A stretch of 44,146 nucleotides of DNA from a virus (taxonomy: Duplodnaviria; Heunggongvirae; Uroviricota; Caudoviricetes). The notes under the pieces were generated by a model that ran no database searches, was not told where the DNA came from, and saw only the letters and a list, made by a program, of their open reading frames with translations. This document shows, piece after piece, positions 23,250-44,063 of the stretch; positions within the stretch are counted from its first letter, which is position 1, and each line of letters starts with the position of its first letter. A program made the translations under genes and the position numbers. The DNA lies in IMG/VR virus record IMGVR_UViG_2698536573_000002; one strand, 5' to 3'.

Positions 23250-23450
23250 TTAATGCTCGCGTCGTCCGGCGACAACTTCGGATTTGTATTTCAGGTCGCC
23301 CAGCAAGAATTGCAGTTTAAGCATCTTTGCCGCCGTGTAGTTCCCTGATTCCACAACCTCTTTCATGAGGTCATAAACGGCCGCTACATCATCAGCCAGG
23401 AACTCTTTGCGTTGCTGCTCAGTCGCACGTTTGAAGGAAATACGCATCAC
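23250..23450 (-). CDS. hypothetical protein
   Basis: 66 aa ORF overlapping upstream gene stop. Confidence 0.3.
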   Translation of the reverse strand: MMRISFKRATEQQRKEFLADDVAAVYDLMKEVVESGNYTAAKMLKLQFLLGDLKYKSEVVAGRREH

Positions 23451-23716
23451 TCATCATCTCCTGCCGCACATACAACCTCACAAAAAAAATCAGCAGAATG
23501 TTTCTCCTTGAACGAATGACGCTCAAAACCGCACTCAATATCAGGCGCAAAAACATCCACCACATACGGTCTTTCAGAATGTTTGTTTTCCCAACGATAA
23601 ACCGTAGTGACGTTGAAATGTTTTAACGCTTCACGGAACTCAACGCTGCCCGTCAGGTTTTTTGAGGTCAGGTATTGCAGGAGGTTTTTTACTACTTCAC
23701 GGTCTTGTACTTTCAT
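23447..23716 (-). CDS. hypothetical protein, first gene after repeat copy 1
   Basis: 89 aa; ATG at 23716 is the last triplet of the conserved repeat, RBS GGAGA inside repeat. Confidence 0.4.
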   Translation of the reverse strand: MKVQDREVVKNLLQYLTSKNLTGSVEFREALKHFNVTTVYRWENKHSERPYVVDVFAPDIECGFERHSFKEKHSADFFCEVVCAAGDDE

Positions 23717-23825
23717 CAGATTTCTCCGGTTTAACCAGGGCGGGTATCGCTCGGTTTCGGGTATAACCTTAGGAAATTTTTTCCCACCTGTAAAGCACTT
23801 TTTATATAAATCTATAATTATATAA
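23717..23825 (-). repeat. ~109-bp promoter-bearing repeat, copy 1
   Basis: Near-identical to 29974-30082 and 40078-40187; contains TTTACA-17bp-TAAGGT, 5' leader and RBS. Confidence 0.85.
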
Positions 23826-23827
23826 TT

Positions 23828-24723: not shown

Positions 24724-24799
24724 TGGTGGCCCCTACCGGATTTGAACCGATGACCGTGCGATTATGAGTCGCCTGCTCTAACCACTAAGCTAAGGGGCC
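24724..24799 (-). tRNA. tRNA with anticodon CAT, ileX/ileY-like (tRNA-Ile2 type; Met not excluded)
   Basis: 76-nt cloverleaf: acceptor GGCCCCT/AGGGGCC, D-arm GCTTAGTGGTTAGAGC, anticodon loop CTCATAA, T-arm GGTTCAAATCC, encoded CCA. Confidence 0.8.
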
Positions 24800-28905: not shown

Positions 28906-29973
28906 TCAGGCTTTCAATAGCGATTCTTTCAGATATCGGGCATCAGCCAGGGCGTTTGGAGTAATCTTGCGAACCCATGCATTACGGGTTGGACTCCACT
29001 TAAAGGCGCGTGATTTAAGCAGCGAACGAATGTTTGCCTCTGGTTTGCCAGGGAAATAAAACAGGATGCGGTTATCCTCTGGATCTATCTCCATAGAAAA
29101 GCCGTCGTATTCTTCGCGCTGTGCTCCTGTTACAGACTTGACCGATTCAAGCTCCTTAATACGGCTCTGTAGTCGTTTGATTTCGGCATTATTGTTACTC
29201 AGTGAGTATGAAGGGAAGCCAATGTGCCCACAGAAATCTCCGGCGAGTAACCCTTTGGCTTCGCTTTCAGTAAACTCAAGGTCAATTAATGCGGAAAGCT
29301 GCTGTAATTGGTCTTTTTTGTATTTGCGAATAGCCTTATTTGCGGCCTTCATTTTGATGTGTGACTTCATGCAGCCTTGCAGCTTACGAAGCAACTTAAA
29401 TAGCGCATCAGGATCATCAGACGAAACTCCATTACGGCCGACACCTGCGGCTTTGCTTTCGTAGTACGATGCTCTGCTTTCACACTCAACAAACGATTTT
29501 CTGAATAACGCATCAGCTTTAGACAAACGGCGGCGATGGCCTTTCGCGCTATAATGGTCAACTAAAATCGGCTGGCCTAACGGGATCACATCCAACAGTT
29601 CATGCGCTCGCTTATGCGCCACCGCACCTTCTTTTCTGGCTTTTTCTGCACGAGCAATATATCGGGCAAGACGCGCGTTCTGGCGTTCCTGATAGGTATT
29701 TACGTAATCATCTCCGCGCTGCTGCTGTTCAAGCCATGCTTTGCGCAGCTTTTCTGTTACGTCTACCAACTCTGCAGGGATACAACCTGTTTGGGATTCA
29801 TAAGAGTGACCATCCTCATAAAGACGTCCATCGTCTTCAACAACGAAAAAGGTTTCGTGCTCATCGCTTTTGACCATACGGCCATTAACATGACGTAATC
29901 TATAGCCAGTATCAGTGCTCAACAGGCTGTTAGGGTTGTTGATCCAGTCAGAAATAATTACTTGTTTATTCAT
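28906..29973 (-). CDS. hypothetical protein (355 aa), first gene after repeat copy 2
   Basis: ORF 28906-30123; start at 29973 (MNKQV) preferred because it is the ATG closing the conserved repeat. Confidence 0.45.
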   Translation of the reverse strand: MNKQVIISDWINNPNSLLSTDTGYRLRHVNGRMVKSDEHETFFVVEDDGRLYEDGHSYESQTGCIPAELVDVTEKLRKAWLEQQQRGDDYVNTYQERQNARLARYIARAEKARKEGAVAHKRAHELLDVIPLGQPILVDHYSAKGHRRRLSKADALFRKSFVECESRASYYESKAAGVGRNGVSSDDPDALFKLLRKLQGCMKSHIKMKAANKAIRKYKKDQLQQLSALIDLEFTESEAKGLLAGDFCGHIGFPSYSLSNNNAEIKRLQSRIKELESVKSVTGAQREEYDGFSMEIDPEDNRILFYFPGKPEANIRSLLKSRAFKWSPTRNAWVRKITPNALADARYLKESLLKA

Positions 29974-30082
29974 CAGATTTCTCCGGTTTAACCAGGGCGG
30001 GTATCGCTCGGTTTTGGGTATAACCTTAGGAAATTTTTTCCCACCTGTAAAGCACTTTTTATATAAATCTATAATTATATAT
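29974..30082 (-). repeat. ~109-bp promoter-bearing repeat, copy 2
   Basis: One mismatch vs copy 1 over ~105 bp; -35 tgtaaa at 30046-30051, -10 acctta at 30023-30028 (plus-strand coordinates). Confidence 0.85.
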
Positions 30083-30143
30083 TTATAGATTTTCCGATAT
30101 TCCCGGTGCCTACAAATCACCAAAACAGCTCAAAATGACACTT

Positions 30144-35112: not shown

Positions 35113-35136
35113 ATAAAAAAGGCCCCCGAAGGGGCC
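35113..35136 (-). terminator. intrinsic terminator (minus-strand orientation)
   Basis: ggcccc-cgaa-ggggcc hairpin followed by U6 on minus strand, directly after small ORF 35143-35265. Confidence 0.5.
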
Positions 35137-35142
35137 TAATCG

Positions 35143-35265
35143 CTACTTGCTGCTAATGTTTATCGTCACATTCAGAGCGTTATCAGTAATCTTCCAACCC
35201 TCTCCATGTGGCGTAAACAAAGCCCCAGTAACAACGATAAAAATACACATGTAGTATTTTTTCAT
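35143..35265 (-). CDS. small hydrophobic peptide (40 aa)
   Basis: MKKYYMCIFIVVTGALFTPHGEGWKITDNALNVTINISSK; RBS AAGGG; own terminator. Confidence 0.35.
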   Translation of the reverse strand: MKKYYMCIFIVVTGALFTPHGEGWKITDNALNVTINISSK

Positions 35266-35655
35266 TGTGTGGCCCTTACAGGCCGTTTCACGGCATCCCC
35301 ACCGACGAAAATGACGCGAGAGCAAGCACGCTGTTTGTGCCTGCGTGGTACGGCAAGTGGATAATCCTTTCCTGAAAGTCAGTGCCCGGGTGCGAATCGG
35401 CGGAAAGGCCCCAAGCCATATTACACGTCATACCCTTCATAATGAAGGAATAAAAAACGCTTTTATTACATGAGATTACACGTAAATAAGTTAAAAACCT
35501 TCATTTTGCATGAGCTAATGAGCTAAATTTTTTTATATGAATAGTGGACTATTCACCTCAGTTAGGTAAGAATGTAGTTGCTGTTTGTGCTTGCGTGGTT
35601 GTATTAGTACAACGACGTTATGCTGAAAGGACCGCGAATCCGATCAGCACGAAAG

Positions 35656-36419: not shown

Positions 36420-36521
36420 AATGCGCCATTGGTGGACACTTTCCGAGCCGTAGCAAAATCTACGGTCGGGATTGGAACCCCGATAATCATCATGGCGCAT
36501 ACCGCGTTAGCGGTTTTTTTA
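36420..36521 (+). ncRNA. candidate small regulatory RNA (c4-like) upstream of antirepressor operon
   Basis: TTGACA at 36412-36417; terminator accgc-gtta-gcggt + T7 at 36501-36520; short elements complementary to leader near 36603-36634. Confidence 0.3.
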
Positions 36522-36685
36522 TGCGTAAAGCACTGCTACACCCAAATTATGGTGGGGCGTGCGGGGGAGTCGTAAGACTCGCCGGATTCCATGGTGACCG
36601 GTAGTTCCAACCCTGTACGTCTCACCACCCAATGATTGGAACCAGACGGTGGTGAGTATCCTTAACCTTTAAGGGAACTATCACC

Positions 36686-39360: not shown

Positions 39361-39633
39361 TCATTTGATCTCTTGTTCCAATTCTGACGACACTTTAACC
39401 TTTTCCCATACAAGGGTTTGCAGCCTTAACAGAATCGCATCTTTATCAAGGTGTGAAAGATCCTTAACCATATCGTCAAATGACAGAACGCGAATGGCCA
39501 TCTCAATGACCCTCGGCGGCTCCCCCTTCTCATATCGCTTATATGTAGCCAACGATATCCCAAATTCTTCGGCGGCTCGCTCCTGCGTCCAGTTCATCCC
39601 ACGACGCCATAATTTCAATTCATAACCCGTCAT
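39361..39633 (-). CDS. XRE-family HTH protein
   Basis: Start at MTGYEL (GGAGG 5 nt upstream); LKLWRRGMNWTQERAAEEFGISLATYKRYEKGE. Confidence 0.55.
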   Translation of the reverse strand: MTGYELKLWRRGMNWTQERAAEEFGISLATYKRYEKGEPPRVIEMAIRVLSFDDMVKDLSHLDKDAILLRLQTLVWEKVKVSSELEQEIK

Positions 39634-39696
39634 AGCATCCTCCTCGCACAATATTAACACTCGCAAAGTGTCAAAATGACACTTTGCGTATTGTGT

Positions 39697-40077
39697 TTAC
39701 TTAACGAGGAATAAAAATGGTTTATTGTTCGGCGGTGTAATCGGAGCTGGCTCGCTTTTGCTCATGCGATCAGTGTACCAGGCCAGCTCCTTGTCAAAGT
39801 AAGCCTGATTAAAATAGGCAATGAATGTAGTTTCAAATCCATAACGACCGCTAATACGCAGCATCTGATTGCCGTTCTCTGTTTCCAGATATACCTGGGC
39901 ACGTTCCTGATTCTCCTTCAGCCAGGTTAAAGCCTCATCGCACGAGGACACACGATACTCATCATCGTAGCCGTCATCGATGCGGCTTGAAGAAGAACGG
40001 CAAATCACGCCAACAGAACCAGCCAGGATAGTTTGAATTTTAAGGAAAGCGTTTTTGCGGATTTTAATCATGCTCAT
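39697..40077 (-). CDS. hypothetical protein, first gene after repeat copy 3
   Basis: 126 aa; ATG at 40077 closes the conserved repeat. Confidence 0.4.
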   Translation of the reverse strand: MSMIKIRKNAFLKIQTILAGSVGVICRSSSSRIDDGYDDEYRVSSCDEALTWLKENQERAQVYLETENGNQMLRISGRYGFETTFIAYFNQAYFDKELAWYTDRMSKSEPAPITPPNNKPFLFLVK

Positions 40078-40187
40078 CGGGTTATCTCCGGTTTAACCAG
40101 GGCGGGTATCGCTCGGTTTCGGGTATAACACTAGGAAATATTTTCCCACCTGTAAAGCACTTTTTATATAAATCTATAATTATATAA
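40078..40187 (-). repeat. ~109-bp promoter-bearing repeat, copy 3
   Basis: About 95 percent identical to copies 1 and 2; same -35/-10 spacing. Confidence 0.85.
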
Positions 40188-40240
40188 TTCCATGAGCACA
40201 AAAAAGCCCCTTTGCAACAGGGGCTTATCATTCGTTCTGA

Positions 40241-40540
40241 TCAGATGTTAAACGCTATTCGTTTTCCTGTGGGAAGCTCAACATCCAGGCTTAATTTGCC
40301 TCCCATAGCTTCAACGTAACGCTTTAATGTCGCCAGCTTTAAATCATTTCCGCGCTGCTCCAGCTTTGTTACTGCTGGCTGGCTTATACCCATCGCCTCA
40401 GCAACCTGCTTTTGTGATAACTGGAGTTCTTCACGCATCATCTGCAAGCCGACCTCAAGAATCATCTCATCTGCCATTTCTTTAATTCGCGCCTGGCTTT
40501 CCGGTGAACGGCTGGCAATCACCTCATCTAATGTTCTCAT
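40241..40540 (-). CDS. HTH antitoxin (HigA-like)
   Basis: 99 aa; LQLSQKQVAEAMGISQPAVTKLEQ and C-terminal LATLKRYVEAMGGKLSLDV. Confidence 0.55.
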   Translation of the reverse strand: MRTLDEVIASRSPESQARIKEMADEMILEVGLQMMREELQLSQKQVAEAMGISQPAVTKLEQRGNDLKLATLKRYVEAMGGKLSLDVELPTGKRIAFNI

Positions 40541-40893
40541 TACTTGCTCTCCAGTGTGTTCAGATGTGCTGCAAACTCATCCTCAGCTATACGCACCAGT
40601 TTTTTATAAAACCGCTTATCGTTACTTTTGTCTCCTGCACAAAGAACGATAGCCCGGCGAATCGGATCGAACGCATAAAAGGCTCTTATCGGACGGCCAG
40701 AAAACTGAACGCGAAGCTCTTTCATATTTTTGTACCGAGAACCTTTTACGGTATCGGCATATGGCCTGGGTAACTCAGGTCCGTAAACCTGTAGCTTTTT
40801 CAAATCAGCCAAAACCTTTTCCTGAAGAGCGTCTTCTTGCTCATTTAGCCAGTCGTCAAATCGCTGGCTAAAAAGTACCGTCCACATGCTCAA
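40540..40893 (-). CDS. RelE/HigB-family toxin (Gp49-like)
   Basis: 117 aa; toxin-first order with overlapping stop/start; TVKGSRYKNMKELRVQFSGRPIRAFYAFDPIRRAIVL. Confidence 0.55.
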   Translation of the reverse strand: MSMWTVLFSQRFDDWLNEQEDALQEKVLADLKKLQVYGPELPRPYADTVKGSRYKNMKELRVQFSGRPIRAFYAFDPIRRAIVLCAGDKSNDKRFYKKLVRIAEDEFAAHLNTLESK

Positions 40894-41131
40894 TCCTATA
40901 ACCTGTAGTTTATATCACTAACTATATAACCTGTGGGTTATAATTTCAAGAAAAACGGGGCCATTTAACATAATGGACGTTATCGGCACCACCGGATCAC
41001 CGTTCATTGTCGGATCTAAAAAATCCGCTCAAAAGATCATGTTTTCCTGGGCGTTTTCCACTGTTTTTTATGTTGCTTATTTGTTAATGAAATCTCGTTT
41101 TCAGTTTCGCCTCATTTTCGACACGAAAGCC

Positions 41132-41422
41132 CTATTTTTGTGACTTTACTCCTGGCATATGGACTTCCCAGCGACGAATCCCCATAGCTGCGCAAAAATC
41201 AGCCACATAATTCAATCCCGCCCATTCGCGGATACCACCACGGGCTTTTTCAATGAAAACGGCAATCCCTTTTTTATTGAGAGCAAAAAGCCGCCAGCTT
41301 TTTGTCACTTCGTCCTGGGTAGCCACAACACAAGTGAAAGCTCCCATGCGATACAGGTCCAAGAACTCTTTGCGTGTTTTGCGTACAAGTTCCATAACAA
41401 ACCTCATATTTGCATGTTTCAA
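41132..41422 (-). CDS. hypothetical protein (second gene of two-gene module beside ori)
   Basis: 96 aa; start overlaps upstream gene stop. Confidence 0.35.
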   Translation of the reverse strand: MKHANMRFVMELVRKTRKEFLDLYRMGAFTCVVATQDEVTKSWRLFALNKKGIAVFIEKARGGIREWAGLNYVADFCAAMGIRRWEVHMPGVKSQK

Positions 41423-41706
41423 ACATCTGTTTTGTTATCAATGAAGATTAACCCTAACCCAGCGAAGTAACACAGCAGCGCCCAGGCTGCATACGGAATG
41501 CTGGATCTGGATGTGGACTCCTTTAACATCTGCCAGTTGCGAACATTGCGACTATCTTTTAAGCCTAGTTTTTTGGCCAACTGCGAGCCGCTCATTCCGG
41601 TCAGGCCAATGACTGCCCGAACTTCTCCACATGTAGGAGATTCCCATTCATCCGCTTTTTTTAAACAAGCCGGATTCAACATTTTTAAAACAGTATCTTT
41701 ATCCAT
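41419..41706 (-). CDS. small HTH-like protein with C-terminal TM helix
   Basis: Start at third ATG (GGAG 6 nt upstream); LTGMSGSQLAKKLGL then IPYAAWALLCYFAGLGLIFI. Confidence 0.35.
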   Translation of the reverse strand: MDKDTVLKMLNPACLKKADEWESPTCGEVRAVIGLTGMSGSQLAKKLGLKDSRNVRNWQMLKESTSRSSIPYAAWALLCYFAGLGLIFIDNKTDV

Positions 41707-41759
41707 AACCATCTCCATTTATTATATCTACGATGGTAGGAAATCTTTTCCTATGTGGC

Positions 41760-42349
41760 AATAGAAATTTACTACATTGCGTATAAGACAAGTTTTCTAT
41801 GTCTAATAGAAAAGGATGTTTCTTACGTTTTGTCGCGTTCTGATTGCTACTGTGTGCGTATTTATCGACGTTTATTGATAAGGTCCGTCCCTTCCTCCTG
41901 CAAAGCCCGGCCGTAGGCCTTATTTCGGCCTTATATAAATTGATTTTGTATAGTTCGAAACGCGCCGTTTCGAAAAGGATGATCAGGCTGCTCCATGCCT
42001 CCGGCAAGTGCCGGAGGAGGTATATTTGAGCGTAGCGACTCGAACCGGCGCGAGCTTTAGCTCGCTGCAAGGGCGAACATATTCACAGGCAAAGCCTGCG
42101 TAAGTTAAATAAAGAAAGTCTTAATAAAAGAAAGTGATTTTGCATTTATTTGTTTAGTGCATCTATTATAAAAAACCATTTGCATATACATATCAAAACT
42201 GTGGATAACTTTATTATCCGATGCCTGTAAAGGCGATATTTTTGCTGTGTTCAGGTTTAGAGAAAATTAATTTAGACTATTTTTTGAACAGATATTTTAT
42301 TGCGACGTAGATAATCCTCCGGTAAAACCGGATTCATCATTCAGGTGGG
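41760..42349. other. putative plasmid replication origin region downstream of repA
   Basis: AT-rich; DnaA box TTATCCACA (revcomp of 42200-42208); palindromes ttcgaaacg-cgc-cgtttcgaa and cctccggca-ag-tgccggagg near 41950-42015. Confidence 0.45.
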
Positions 42350-43198
42350 TTAATGTTGGAGTGATTTCCAGGTCTTTCTTAGCCTGTTATAACGCTGCTC
42401 AACGAGGGATCGTAAATATGCAAGGTCAGCACCTGGATACATGCCATCAGCAAATTCCTGGCTAACCTCTCTAGTGATTTGATGACGAAGTTCGGCCTCT
42501 CCCTTTTCCCGGACAAGACGCGCAGCTCTCTCCGCTGCTTTCTGTTTTGCCTTTATCTCTCTGGCCGTCTTCCTCTGGCGCCATACATTCTCCATCTGCT
42601 CCTGAATAACAATACGCTTATAATCAGCCTCCGTTATCGCTTTTTTAAGCCGTTCGCTATTCTTCGCATTGAAGTAATTAAGTTTCTGGCTAACCGCACG
42701 TCTCCATGCTTGTTCAGTAATACCAACGGTTTCCAGCAGTTGATCACGAATCTCTATTTTCGCTGGCCAATACTGTTTATTCACCCGATCCCAGCGACGT
42801 TCATAATCAATAAAACCTAACGCTTTCAGTTGCGACAACGCCCTTGTACAGCGCGTTATAGACTTGTTCCCAGCTTCGGATACGGTAGACAGGCCGCAAA
42901 AATCAGCCAACGCCTCAGCACTAGCCAGAACCCGCTTAGAAATGATGTTTACATGGTGCAAAATCGCAGCGATCACAGCATTAATCGCCCGACGACGATG
43001 CTCGTTTATCCGGCGCTTCCGCTCTGACGGTTGATTAACGTAGAACGCAACCTCACACGTAAGATCACGCCCATTAATGCGCTGTAAAGCATCAGATAAC
43101 ACCAGCGGCAGCTTGTGCGTATGGTGCTTTGGAGGCTGGAACTCCGGCGACAAATTACAAACGTAAGCTGAACGTAGAGACGGCATTGGTCTATCCAT
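42350..43198 (-). CDS. repA: replication initiation protein, IncFII RepA1 family
   Basis: Contains KSITRCTRALSQLKALGFIDY block resembling R100/R1 RepA1 as I recall it; ORF open to 43327, internal ATG at 43198 gives ~283 aa; upstream part is leader targeted by antisense RNA. Confidence 0.7.
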   Translation of the reverse strand: MDRPMPSLRSAYVCNLSPEFQPPKHHTHKLPLVLSDALQRINGRDLTCEVAFYVNQPSERKRRINEHRRRAINAVIAAILHHVNIISKRVLASAEALADFCGLSTVSEAGNKSITRCTRALSQLKALGFIDYERRWDRVNKQYWPAKIEIRDQLLETVGITEQAWRRAVSQKLNYFNAKNSERLKKAITEADYKRIVIQEQMENVWRQRKTAREIKAKQKAAERAARLVREKGEAELRHQITREVSQEFADGMYPGADLAYLRSLVEQRYNRLRKTWKSLQH

Positions 43199-43242
43199 AT
43201 GTTCGCTCTTGCGTCCACGGAAAACCAACGTATAATGGGAGT

Positions 43243-43320
43243 TGTCGAGGCGCCCATGGTTAGTTGTTGGTTTTCCGTGGATGTCGCAAGAAGCCCGCAG
43301 ATTTATCTGCGGGCTTTTTG
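43243..43320 (+). ncRNA. antisense RNA to repA leader (CopA/RNAI-like)
   Basis: Plus-strand promoter TTGCGT-16bp-TATAAT (43209-43236); terminator gcccgcag-atttat-ctgcgggc + T-run at 43293-43323; fully within repA leader. Confidence 0.55.
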
Positions 43321-43362
43321 TTTCCATATCTGGTCACTTTCCAACCAGACACCCACAATCAT

Positions 43363-43508: not shown

Positions 43509-44063
43509 TCAATGATTCCCAGCCGGAAACCTGCGGTAAAGCGTGGATAAAGTAACATCGAAGATAATCGCTATCCGCTTACGTGAAACACCATTCGCAA
43601 TAAGCCTTCCGATCTGTTCCCATTGCTCTGGTGACAGCTTTGAGCGGCGTCCTCCGATCCTGCCGTTAGCCCTTGCCACCGCCAATCCTGCACGCGTTCT
43701 TTCAATCATATTTTCCCGCTCCATCTCTGCGACTGCACTCAGCATCGTGTAGGCAAAGCGGCCAATTGAAGTGCTAATTTTTATCCCTTCCGTAATCGAA
43801 ATAAACTCAATGTTGTTTGATAAAAAATGGTTAAGTAAATCAACAAGATGAATCAGGGAACGCCCCATTCGGTCCAGCTTCCAGACAATAACCGTATCGC
43901 CCGGCCGTAACACCTTAAGTAGCTTATCAAGTCCTGGTCGTTTTGATTTAGCACCGGATATTTTATCTTCAAAAATCCGGTCACATCCTAAACTCCTGAG
44001 CGCCTCCAGTTGTAATTCCAAATTCTGGTCAAAAGTTGACACCCTCGCATAACCATATTGCAT
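43509..44063 (-). CDS. serine recombinase, DNA invertase (Gin/Cin/Pin/Hin family)
   Basis: 184 aa; GYARVSTFDQ catalytic Ser, VWKLDRMGRS, AEMERE, GRIGGR, C-terminal HTH LSTLYRR. Confidence 0.8.
   Translation of the reverse strand: MQYGYARVSTFDQNLELQLEALRSLGCDRIFEDKISGAKSKRPGLDKLLKVLRPGDTVIVWKLDRMGRSLIHLVDLLNHFLSNNIEFISITEGIKISTSIGRFAYTMLSAVAEMERENMIERTRAGLAVARANGRIGGRRSKLSPEQWEQIGRLIANGVSRKRIAIIFDVTLSTLYRRFPAGNH

Follow-up and report, generated by a model that had tools for sequence, protein, structure and literature searches.

Global repression by KorC is exerted through several operators; among the genes under its control, klcA is strongly repressed by KorA together with KorC and is induced approximately 120–220-fold upon entering a new cell (PMC7314908). 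In the IncU plasmid RA3, KorC is likewise a global regulator, and korC heads the korC–kfrC operon (PMC7783346). Our literature search revealed no paper meaningfully linking KorC with phage-plasmids. Here, we describe a korC-like locus in a 44,146-nucleotide (nt) stretch of DNA (the whole of which is referred to below as the window) from a tailed phage-plasmid, IMG/VR record IMGVR_UViG_2698536573_000002. A previous reading of this DNA, made from the letters alone and called here the sequence-only reading, had pointed to two adjacent open reading frames (ORFs) at 41132–41718; both are present, on the minus strand. The locus is quite probably an autoregulated korC operon that carries an inserted phage accessory gene (moron), the KorC-type protein acting as repressor at four promoters. 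The operon comprises the following features.

41419–41706, minus strand: gene A (korC-like), 95 amino acids (aa), WP_000356589, phrog_8351.
41132–41395, minus strand: gene B, a basic alpha/beta protein of 87 aa, WP_000424604, phrog_4595.
41394–41438, minus strand: predicted RNA stem-loop (inverted repeat I2) spanning the end of korC with its UGA, the spacer, and the Shine-Dalgarno (SD) sequence and AUG of gene B.

The start of gene A at ATG 41706 is indicated by the PGAP annotation, by the end of the phrog_8351 profile and by a GGAG located 6 nt upstream. The same three lines of evidence (PGAP annotation, the end of the phrog_4595 profile and a GAGG 6 nt upstream) place the start of gene B at ATG 41395. 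The maximal ORFs of 99 aa and 96 aa, the latter initiated from TTG, were judged unlikely to be the actual genes. Accordingly, the size of about 95 aa given previously for the first protein stands, while the 96 aa given for the second is replaced by 87 aa. The two genes are separated by 23 nt and each possesses its own SD sequence; the TTG start is probably unused, and the translational coupling proposed earlier is not retained in the form of a stop/start overlap. Both genes display a coding signal in comparisons, which was the check set by the sequence-only reading: gene A has about 3,900 plasmid homologues, and the ratio of nonsynonymous to synonymous substitution rates (dN/dS) for gene B is approximately 0.2–0.37 where dS is unsaturated. 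The latter values indicate that gene B is protein-coding and under purifying selection.

On sequence grounds, gene A is a KorC-family repressor, KorC being an established family of global repressors from plasmids. Among its close homologues, the most distant one, P0027, shares 52% identity with gene A (BLASTP E 1e-25). The locus of P0027 (L013) encodes TrfA, followed by Antirestrict (KlcA), KlcB and P0027, and then by KleE, KorA, IncC, and KorB. Since P0027 directly follows klcA–klcB within a TrfA/KorA/IncC/KorB/KleE backbone, it occupies the place that korC has in an IncP-1 plasmid. A search of PLSDB with tblastn returned 3,928 plasmid records, many of which are annotated as korC or ‘transcriptional repressor KorC’. 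The identity of gene A to the annotated korC genes of pA1 and pAKD34 in this search was 48–52% (48% for KorC of pAKD34), and the gene order in pAKD34, klcA–klcB–korC–kleA, is canonical. The alignment of gene A with KorC proteins contains 24 invariant columns; W21, P24-T25, E28, R53, V55-R56, and W58 are common to all, as is the tail IPYAAWALLCxFAGLGxI[FW]. Neither Pfam nor PADLOC gave a significant match to gene A, and the search of NCBIfam yielded only a weak match to the helix-turn-helix (HTH) family ‘mobile mystery protein A’. A word-indexed search of 5.8 billion proteins retrieved close relatives only, 15 for gene A and 12 for gene B. With gene A, a known family gains a new member from an unusual host element. 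The earlier label ‘unknown family’ therefore applies to gene B only, and the regulatory module listed among the earlier options holds in so far as gene A is a KorC-type repressor, and probably not in the form of an unusual membrane-anchored factor.

The HTH-like segment noticed earlier in the first protein corresponds to an HTH fold found by both profile and structure searches. The AlphaFold model of gene A has a predicted local distance difference test score (pLDDT) of 83.6 and represents an XRE-type HTH protein with helices at residues 26–36, 40–46, 53–59, and 72–81. The sequence-only reading had also proposed a C-terminal transmembrane helix. The hydrophobicity itself is real: the mean Kyte-Doolittle value over IPYAAWALLCYFAGLGLIFI, the last 20 or so residues of gene A, is approximately 1.9 by hand summation. 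However, IncP-1 KorC proteins vary hardly at all in the hydrophobic C-terminal stretch, IPYAAWALLCYFAGLGLIF, which is identical in P0027 despite the overall identity of 52%. In the model, the HTH domain has its last helix at residues 72–81 (pLDDT of about 91 for residues 71–80), and this helix aligns with ISFAAWHYL of AcrIF24. Residues 82–89 (AGLGLIFI) are hydrophobic as well and are modelled with lower confidence. Gene A has no signal or other membrane feature, and only about six residues follow the hydrophobic segment. A membrane anchor in this protein is unlikely, as judged from the model and from the conservation of the segment in KorC.

The second line of evidence comes from the DNA upstream of the genes. 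In IncP-1 loci, TAGGGCATTATGCCCTA occurs before klcA, and TAGGGCAATTTGCCCTA (TAGGGCA-N3-TGCCCTA) is located 55 nt before both klcA and kleA. This palindrome is presumably the KorC operator, OC, of the RK2 literature; a literature search for the IncP-1 OC sequence gave nothing. The following promoter and operator features were predicted in the window.

41733–41761, minus strand: predicted sigma-70 promoter of the korC–gene B operon, TTGCCA-17 nt-TACCAT, from a consensus scan.
41737–41753, no strand assigned: putative OC-like operator in the korC promoter, the perfect 17-bp palindrome TAGGAAATCTTTTCCTA.
40078–40188, minus strand: cassette 1 (promoter, operator and leader), with the operator at 40132–40148, TAGGAAATATTTTCCCA, one mismatch.
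29974–30083, minus strand: cassette 2 (promoter, operator and leader), with the operator at 30027–30043, one mismatch.
23717–23826, minus strand: cassette 3 (promoter, operator and leader), with the operator at 23770–23786, one mismatch.

TAGGAAATCTTTTCCTA is the sole perfect TAGG-N9-CCTA sequence in the window. It sits between the -35 hexamer TTGCCA and the -10 hexamer TACCAT, the latter of which begins with the final TA of the palindrome. Further copies, each with one mismatch, begin at 40132, 30027, and 23770. With up to three mismatches allowed, eight matches were observed, a number reached in none of 100 shuffled sequences. The three distal copies lie within cassettes of about 110 nt, which are almost identical to one another and consist of an AT-rich upstream part, a TTTACA -35 element, the operator, and a conserved leader extending to GGAG and the ATG. 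Cassette 1 precedes a gene for a 126-aa protein (phrog_8090; 39697–40077) and an HTH gene (39361–39666). Cassette 2 precedes a DUF3560 gene (28906–29973) and the genes behind it, and cassette 3 precedes an 89-aa ORF (23447–23716) followed by small ORFs. All four operator copies occur in the same register relative to the -35 and -10 hexamers. The distance from operator to ATG in the cassettes, 54–55 nt, matches that of IncP-1 klcA and kleA. Alignment is also possible between the cassette leaders and that of klcA (...ACCGAGC...AAACCGGAGAAA...ATG); here the operators share a column, and the final TA of the operator starts the -10 element. The leader conserved among cassettes 1–3 and alignable with that of klcA is TATACCCGAAACCGAGCGATACCCGCCCTGGTTAAACCGGAGAAAT.

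Since the three distal operators lie in repeated DNA, independent support was sought in diverged relatives. In Enterobacter relatives, whose KorC is about 63% identical, the palindrome TAGGAAAATATTTCCTA is located between TTGCAA and TACCAT upstream of korC, within diverged flanks; in locus L016 the position of the korC promoter is conserved as TTGCAA...TACCAT. A perfect TAGGAAAATATTTCCTA was found in the Citrobacter locus L023 upstream of korC, of a 125-aa gene and of a DUF3560 gene, in the last case at a distance of 56 nt. The Klebsiella aerogenes locus L022 contains perfect copies upstream of korC and of the 126-aa gene.

Gene B behaves as a unit separate from gene A. It is absent from loci L016, L017, and L022, all of which possess korC. 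The gene order in Enterobacter relatives is repA–korC–hicA–hicB, and that in K. aerogenes L022 is repA–korC–higBA with the same intergenic DNA, in both cases without gene B. A three-way alignment revealed a clean indel of about 310 nt between korC and higBA, extending from after the KorC ...GLGxIF codons to near the stop codon of gene B. The position of its start implies that the 5' end of the insertion supplies the codons for the KorC tail IDNKTDV in the window. Conversely, gene B homologues occur at 10 chromosomal or prophage loci that contain no gene A-like ORF at E<0.01. At these loci, the homologue either has a baseplate-like gene on one side and convergent tail-fibre genes on the other, as in enterobacterial prophages, or belongs to an early region. 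The homologue in Salmonella phage SPN3UB is located in the nin region, between replication genes and ninB/Q and beside dinI, and that of Klebsiella phage ST405-OXA48phi1.2 is in the early region. Gene B is best read as a horizontally acquired moron, not as an obligate partner of korC, and the dedicated two-gene pair envisaged previously is abandoned.

An exhaustive profile search among 1.84 billion cluster representatives retrieved 27 proteins for gene B, of which P0040 and P0049 can be set aside as repetitive artefacts or noise from eukaryotes. Members of this family are mostly 80–100 aa long and share the motif aaRGG[IV]REWsGL(N/D)yLa.FC..GIslWEVHnk. The named members come from Enterobacteriaceae, Pantoea, Vibrio, and Photobacterium, and the cluster members are named only ‘hypothetical’ or ‘bacteriophage protein’. 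Searches of Pfam, NCBIfam, PADLOC, and PDB sequences gave no informative match. The net charge of the protein is about +7 by hand count. Its structural model is of moderate confidence (pLDDT 71), and the fold matches, to eL38, the FtsH N-domain, and SRP9, are generic. A HicA-like or double-stranded RNA-binding-domain-like small toxin was considered as well and rejected, since gene B does not combine a sequence or fold match to HicA with pairing to HicB. The C-terminal half of gene B (REWSGL...WEVHNK) also occurs fused to unrelated N-termini, namely in L006 (5561–6270), P0047, P0051, and P0052, and the sequence following WEVH in the window gene is unlike that of all prophage homologues. Both observations suggest that the gene B cassette has recombined repeatedly, either internally or at its ends.

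The predicted stem-loop between the two genes has a minimum free energy of -13.1 kcal/mol and a z-score of -2.2; three of 200 shuffled sequences fold equally well. Its 5' half contains the korC stop codon, and its 3' half contains the SD sequence and AUG of gene B. An equivalent SD-masking stem-loop precedes the gene B homologues in the 10 chromosomal loci. Upstream of every gene B homologue we found a conserved element, the outer stem of which, approximately CAAACCnnnG/CnnnGGTTTG, pairs with the SD region, while an inner hairpin, TTTGTTA..AACAAA, lies within this outer stem. RNAalifold retained 12 consensus pairs, with compensatory changes in five of them (for example, CCCCCG/CGGGGG versus ACCTTAG/CTAAGGT). 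Elsewhere in the window, extra copies of the leader motifs occurred at chance level. The stem-loop was also considered as a general intrinsic terminator, and this was rejected, since a T-rich tail is present in L004, L009, and L011 only. Because the 5' arm lies in the last codons of korC and the SD sequence and AUG lie in the 3' half, structure-mediated translational coupling between korC and gene B is plausible.

Taken together, these data allow the following scenario to be proposed. A dimer of gene A would most likely bind the 17-bp palindrome TAGGAAA-N3-TTTCCTA, covering the spacer and the first -10 bases, at four promoters: its own and those of the three near-identical cassettes that precede accessory operons. 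If the IncP-1 kil-kor regulon is a guide, entry into a repressor-free cell would trigger a burst of transcription from all four, and accumulating KorC would then hold them at a low level. Gene B, having presumably been inserted into the 3' tail of korC, would ride on the autoregulated korC transcript. Ribosomes finishing korC would probably open the stem-loop that masks the ribosome-binding site (RBS) and start of gene B, so that the coupling would operate through structure, not through overlap. Our best guess is that gene B encodes an early-expressed, dose-sensitive factor engaged in host interaction or nucleic-acid binding.

Several points weigh against this interpretation. The inner half-site of the operator is AAA/TTT here and GCA/TGC in IncP-1, so that the operator specificity of gene A can only be presumed. 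The three distal operators lie in repeated DNA and do not represent independent occurrences within the genome. The promoters are consensus predictions, and the -10 element of the cassettes (TAAGGT) is weak. Operator binding, repression, and co-transcription of the gene A operon are what we infer from the nucleotide sequence. Covariation gives the hairpin moderate support: the RNAalifold covariation term, at +0.53, is slightly unfavourable, and several pairs are broken in some sequences. The 20-residue hydrophobic C-terminus of gene A passes a simple hydropathy threshold for a membrane helix, and residues 82–95 are modelled with falling confidence, so that a peripheral membrane association may occur. 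Finally, no evidence points to any particular activity of gene B.

Three other explanations were weighed against the autoregulated korC operon. The best of these is an Aca–Acr-like anti-defence operon, in which gene A would be an anti-CRISPR-associated (Aca)-type autorepressor tempering a burst-expressed anti-defence effector, gene B. The nearest solved relatives of gene A do fall in this group: the family profile matched the Aca-functioning C-terminal HTH domain of AcrIF24 (E 1.6e-7, 31% identity over 87 columns) and Aca3 (E 2e-3). In the Foldseek search, the best match was again AcrIF24 (7dtr, TMq 0.70), followed by Aca1, HipB, Aca2, and controller (C-) proteins of restriction-modification systems. 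Gene B is small, belongs to no family, is borne by phages and plasmids at accessory sites such as the nin region by dinI or the tail-region moron position, and is predicted to be under an autoregulated promoter; the IncP-1 KorC regulon also includes an antirestriction gene, klcA (PMC7314908). However, gene A is much closer to KorC in identity, conserved synteny, and operator geometry than to any Aca protein, and three further operators before unrelated operons mark a global, not a local, regulator. Gene order in typical acr–aca operons is the opposite of that seen here. Homologues of gene B are found elsewhere without an Aca- or KorC-like neighbour, gene A occurs without gene B, and the basic gene B protein matched neither solved anti-CRISPR (Acr) proteins nor the defence and anti-defence profiles searched. 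We regard this explanation as unlikely.

Slightly less probable still is a type II toxin–antitoxin or kil-kor pair, in which gene B would be the toxin or ‘kil’ function and gene A an antitoxin or override protein that both represses and neutralizes it. The layout with an HTH gene first and a small protein second is common in such systems, and the name KorC historically stands for ‘kil-override’. The locus is set among maintenance functions, with HigBA adjoining it and HicAB in that place in the Enterobacter relatives, and the tight, family-wide masking of the gene B RBS is typical for dose-sensitive or toxic products. Against this, several phages and at least 10 loci in chromosomes or prophages have gene B but no gene A-like protein nearby, and the three korC loci devoid of gene B are at odds with obligate co-occurrence. 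No toxin match was obtained in PADLOC, Pfam, or NCBIfam. Control by KorC of the transcription of a dose-sensitive gene is compatible with these findings, and the autoregulated-operon explanation already includes it. The idea of a membrane-anchored DNA-binding protein with a small partner, serving origin tethering or superinfection exclusion, draws on the hydropathy of the gene A C-terminus, which simple scans may call a membrane helix, and on the adjacent origin, and is highly improbable given that genuine IncP-1 KorC proteins, which are known transcriptional repressors (PMC7314908, PMC7783346), conserve the hydrophobic C-terminal segment, that part of it packs as an HTH helix in a confident model, that other membrane features are missing, and that gene B is dispensable in relatives.

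The source of the window was identified by comparing 801 bases around the locus with plasmid records. This region shares 99.5–99.8% identity with dozens of non-mobilizable E. coli plasmids of approximately 47–50 kb, and the source is an E. coli phage-plasmid of about 48 kb. Among the near-identical plasmids is that of E. coli ATCC 25922 (NZ_CP009073.1; 48,488 bp; 99.6% identity). Yersinia phages vB_YpM_39, 41, and 44 share 99.1–99.3% identity over the same region; no paper describing them was found in our literature search. The annotation of the ATCC 25922 record lists terminase, portal, capsid, contractile-tail, and tail-fibre genes along with ParA, an IncFII-type RepA, and a serine invertase. 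The presence of structural phage genes together with ParA and RepA identifies the element as a phage-plasmid. The following features flank the korC operon in the window.

42350–43327: repA, IncFII-type (IncFII_repA E 1e-43; RepA_IncFII_LM E 1e-68).
40241–40893: Gp49/HigB-like toxin and HTH/HigA antitoxin pair, from profile matches.
40949–40921, minus strand: predicted higBA promoter, TTGAAA-17-TATAGT.

The sole perfect DnaA box in the window occurs at 42200–42208, 142 nt past the repA stop codon. Given its position near repA, the description of the module as lying beside the origin is reasonable, and so is its placement ahead of a HigBA-like pair: the two genes are flanked by repA and the DnaA box on one side and by the Gp49/HigB and HTH/HigA genes on the other. 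Between the korC promoter and the DnaA box (41850–42110), several GC-rich inverted repeats are present (41961–41973/42040–42052, 41998–42017, and the hairpin GGCCGAAATAAGGCC near 41920), which may be origin-associated structures or terminators. Two partly palindromic repeats of 18–19 nt, TATAACCTGTrGkTTATA, overlap the predicted higBA promoter at 40897–40942 and are likely to be the HigA operator.

Several other elements were identified at a distance from the locus. Rfam matches at gathering level were obtained on the plus strand at 36447–36632 for isrK (36447–36520) and C4 antisense RNA (36545–36632). They form the P1/P7-type c4/ant immunity arrangement, which suggests that an antisense RNA and an antirepressor control lysogeny; the annotation of the ATCC 25922 record has an ORF6N/Rha protein near this region. 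A full-length Rfam match to ryfA RNA is located at 35115–35413 on the minus strand (134.7 bits, E 2e-34). Also on the minus strand, a tRNA-Met (CAT) gene (24724–24799) lies upstream of a minus-strand MT-A70 methyltransferase gene. A serine recombinase resembling the Cin/Gin invertases is encoded at 43509–44063, minus strand, and adjoins opposed tail-fibre-assembly genes in the ATCC 25922 record; together these presumably constitute an invertible host-range segment.

The interpretation proposed here turns two ‘hypothetical proteins’ of dozens of phage-plasmids from E. coli (ATCC 25922 included), Citrobacter, Klebsiella, and Yersinia into a regulatory picture open to testing, with a KorC-type global repressor and four defined operators. 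Gene B and the genes that follow the three cassettes become candidates for early ‘establishment’ functions. Current understanding is not overturned by this picture. A further-reaching view, which we put forward only tentatively and consider rather doubtful, is that gene B represents a new kind of early, dose-sensitive phage or plasmid effector (anti-defence or ‘kil’-type host takeover), possibly RNA-binding. It would move as a self-contained cassette with a conserved RBS-masking riboregulatory leader, and its capture in this phage-plasmid would be due to a KorC ‘establishment regulon’ that phage-plasmids and IncP-1 plasmids have in common, promoter–leader cassettes included.

Compared with described systems, the locus most closely resembles the KorC regulons of RK2/RP4, R751, pAKD34, and the IncU plasmid RA3. 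Gene A shares 48–52% identity with these KorC proteins over about 80% of the length, and the proteins are of similar size (84–98 aa). They have in common the XRE-type HTH, the motifs W..PT..E[IV]R and R.VR.W, and the IPYAAWALLCxFAGLGxI tail. At the DNA level, both regulons display a 17-bp palindrome with TAGG/CCTA ends, which overlaps the -10 element at several promoters and is located 54–55 nt before the start codon. One operator lies ahead of the korC-containing operon itself, and the promoter and leader DNA can be aligned. In RA3, too, korC heads an operon of two genes (PMC7783346). The differences concern mainly the surroundings. Where the IncP and IncU regulons reside on conjugative plasmids, this one belongs to a tailed phage-plasmid whose RepA is of the IncFII type. 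None of the KorA, KorB, or KlcA/Kle proteins was seen in the window, and there is no KorA operator beside the OC-like site. Instead of the IncP-1 targets, the regulated genes would be those for the 126-aa phrog_8090 protein, the DUF3560 protein, and the 89-aa ORF. In the alignment of gene A with KorC, a five-residue insertion (MLKES/TP..) separates the recognition helix from the last helix.

The Aca proteins and the HTH domain of AcrIF24 provide the closest solved structures and sequences to gene A. By analogy, gene A may share with Aca the mode of action of a small HTH protein that represses the promoter of its own operon via a promoter-overlapping palindrome. Unlike in Aca systems, gene A is far more similar to KorC, four operators are present, the operon starts with the HTH gene, and nothing marks gene B as an anti-CRISPR. 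Gene B, for its part, resembles the morons of lambdoid nin and tail regions in being small, in having no assigned function, and in being present or absent among close relatives. It differs from other morons in its location inside a plasmid regulatory operon, where its expression would require the korC promoter and probably translation of korC, and in carrying a conserved RBS-masking leader wherever it is found. As to the operon as a whole, a tailed phage-plasmid with an IncFII replicon and the IncP-1 kil-kor system share the same regulator, operator geometry, and promoter–leader cassette design, which points to module exchange between plasmid and phage-plasmid backbones.

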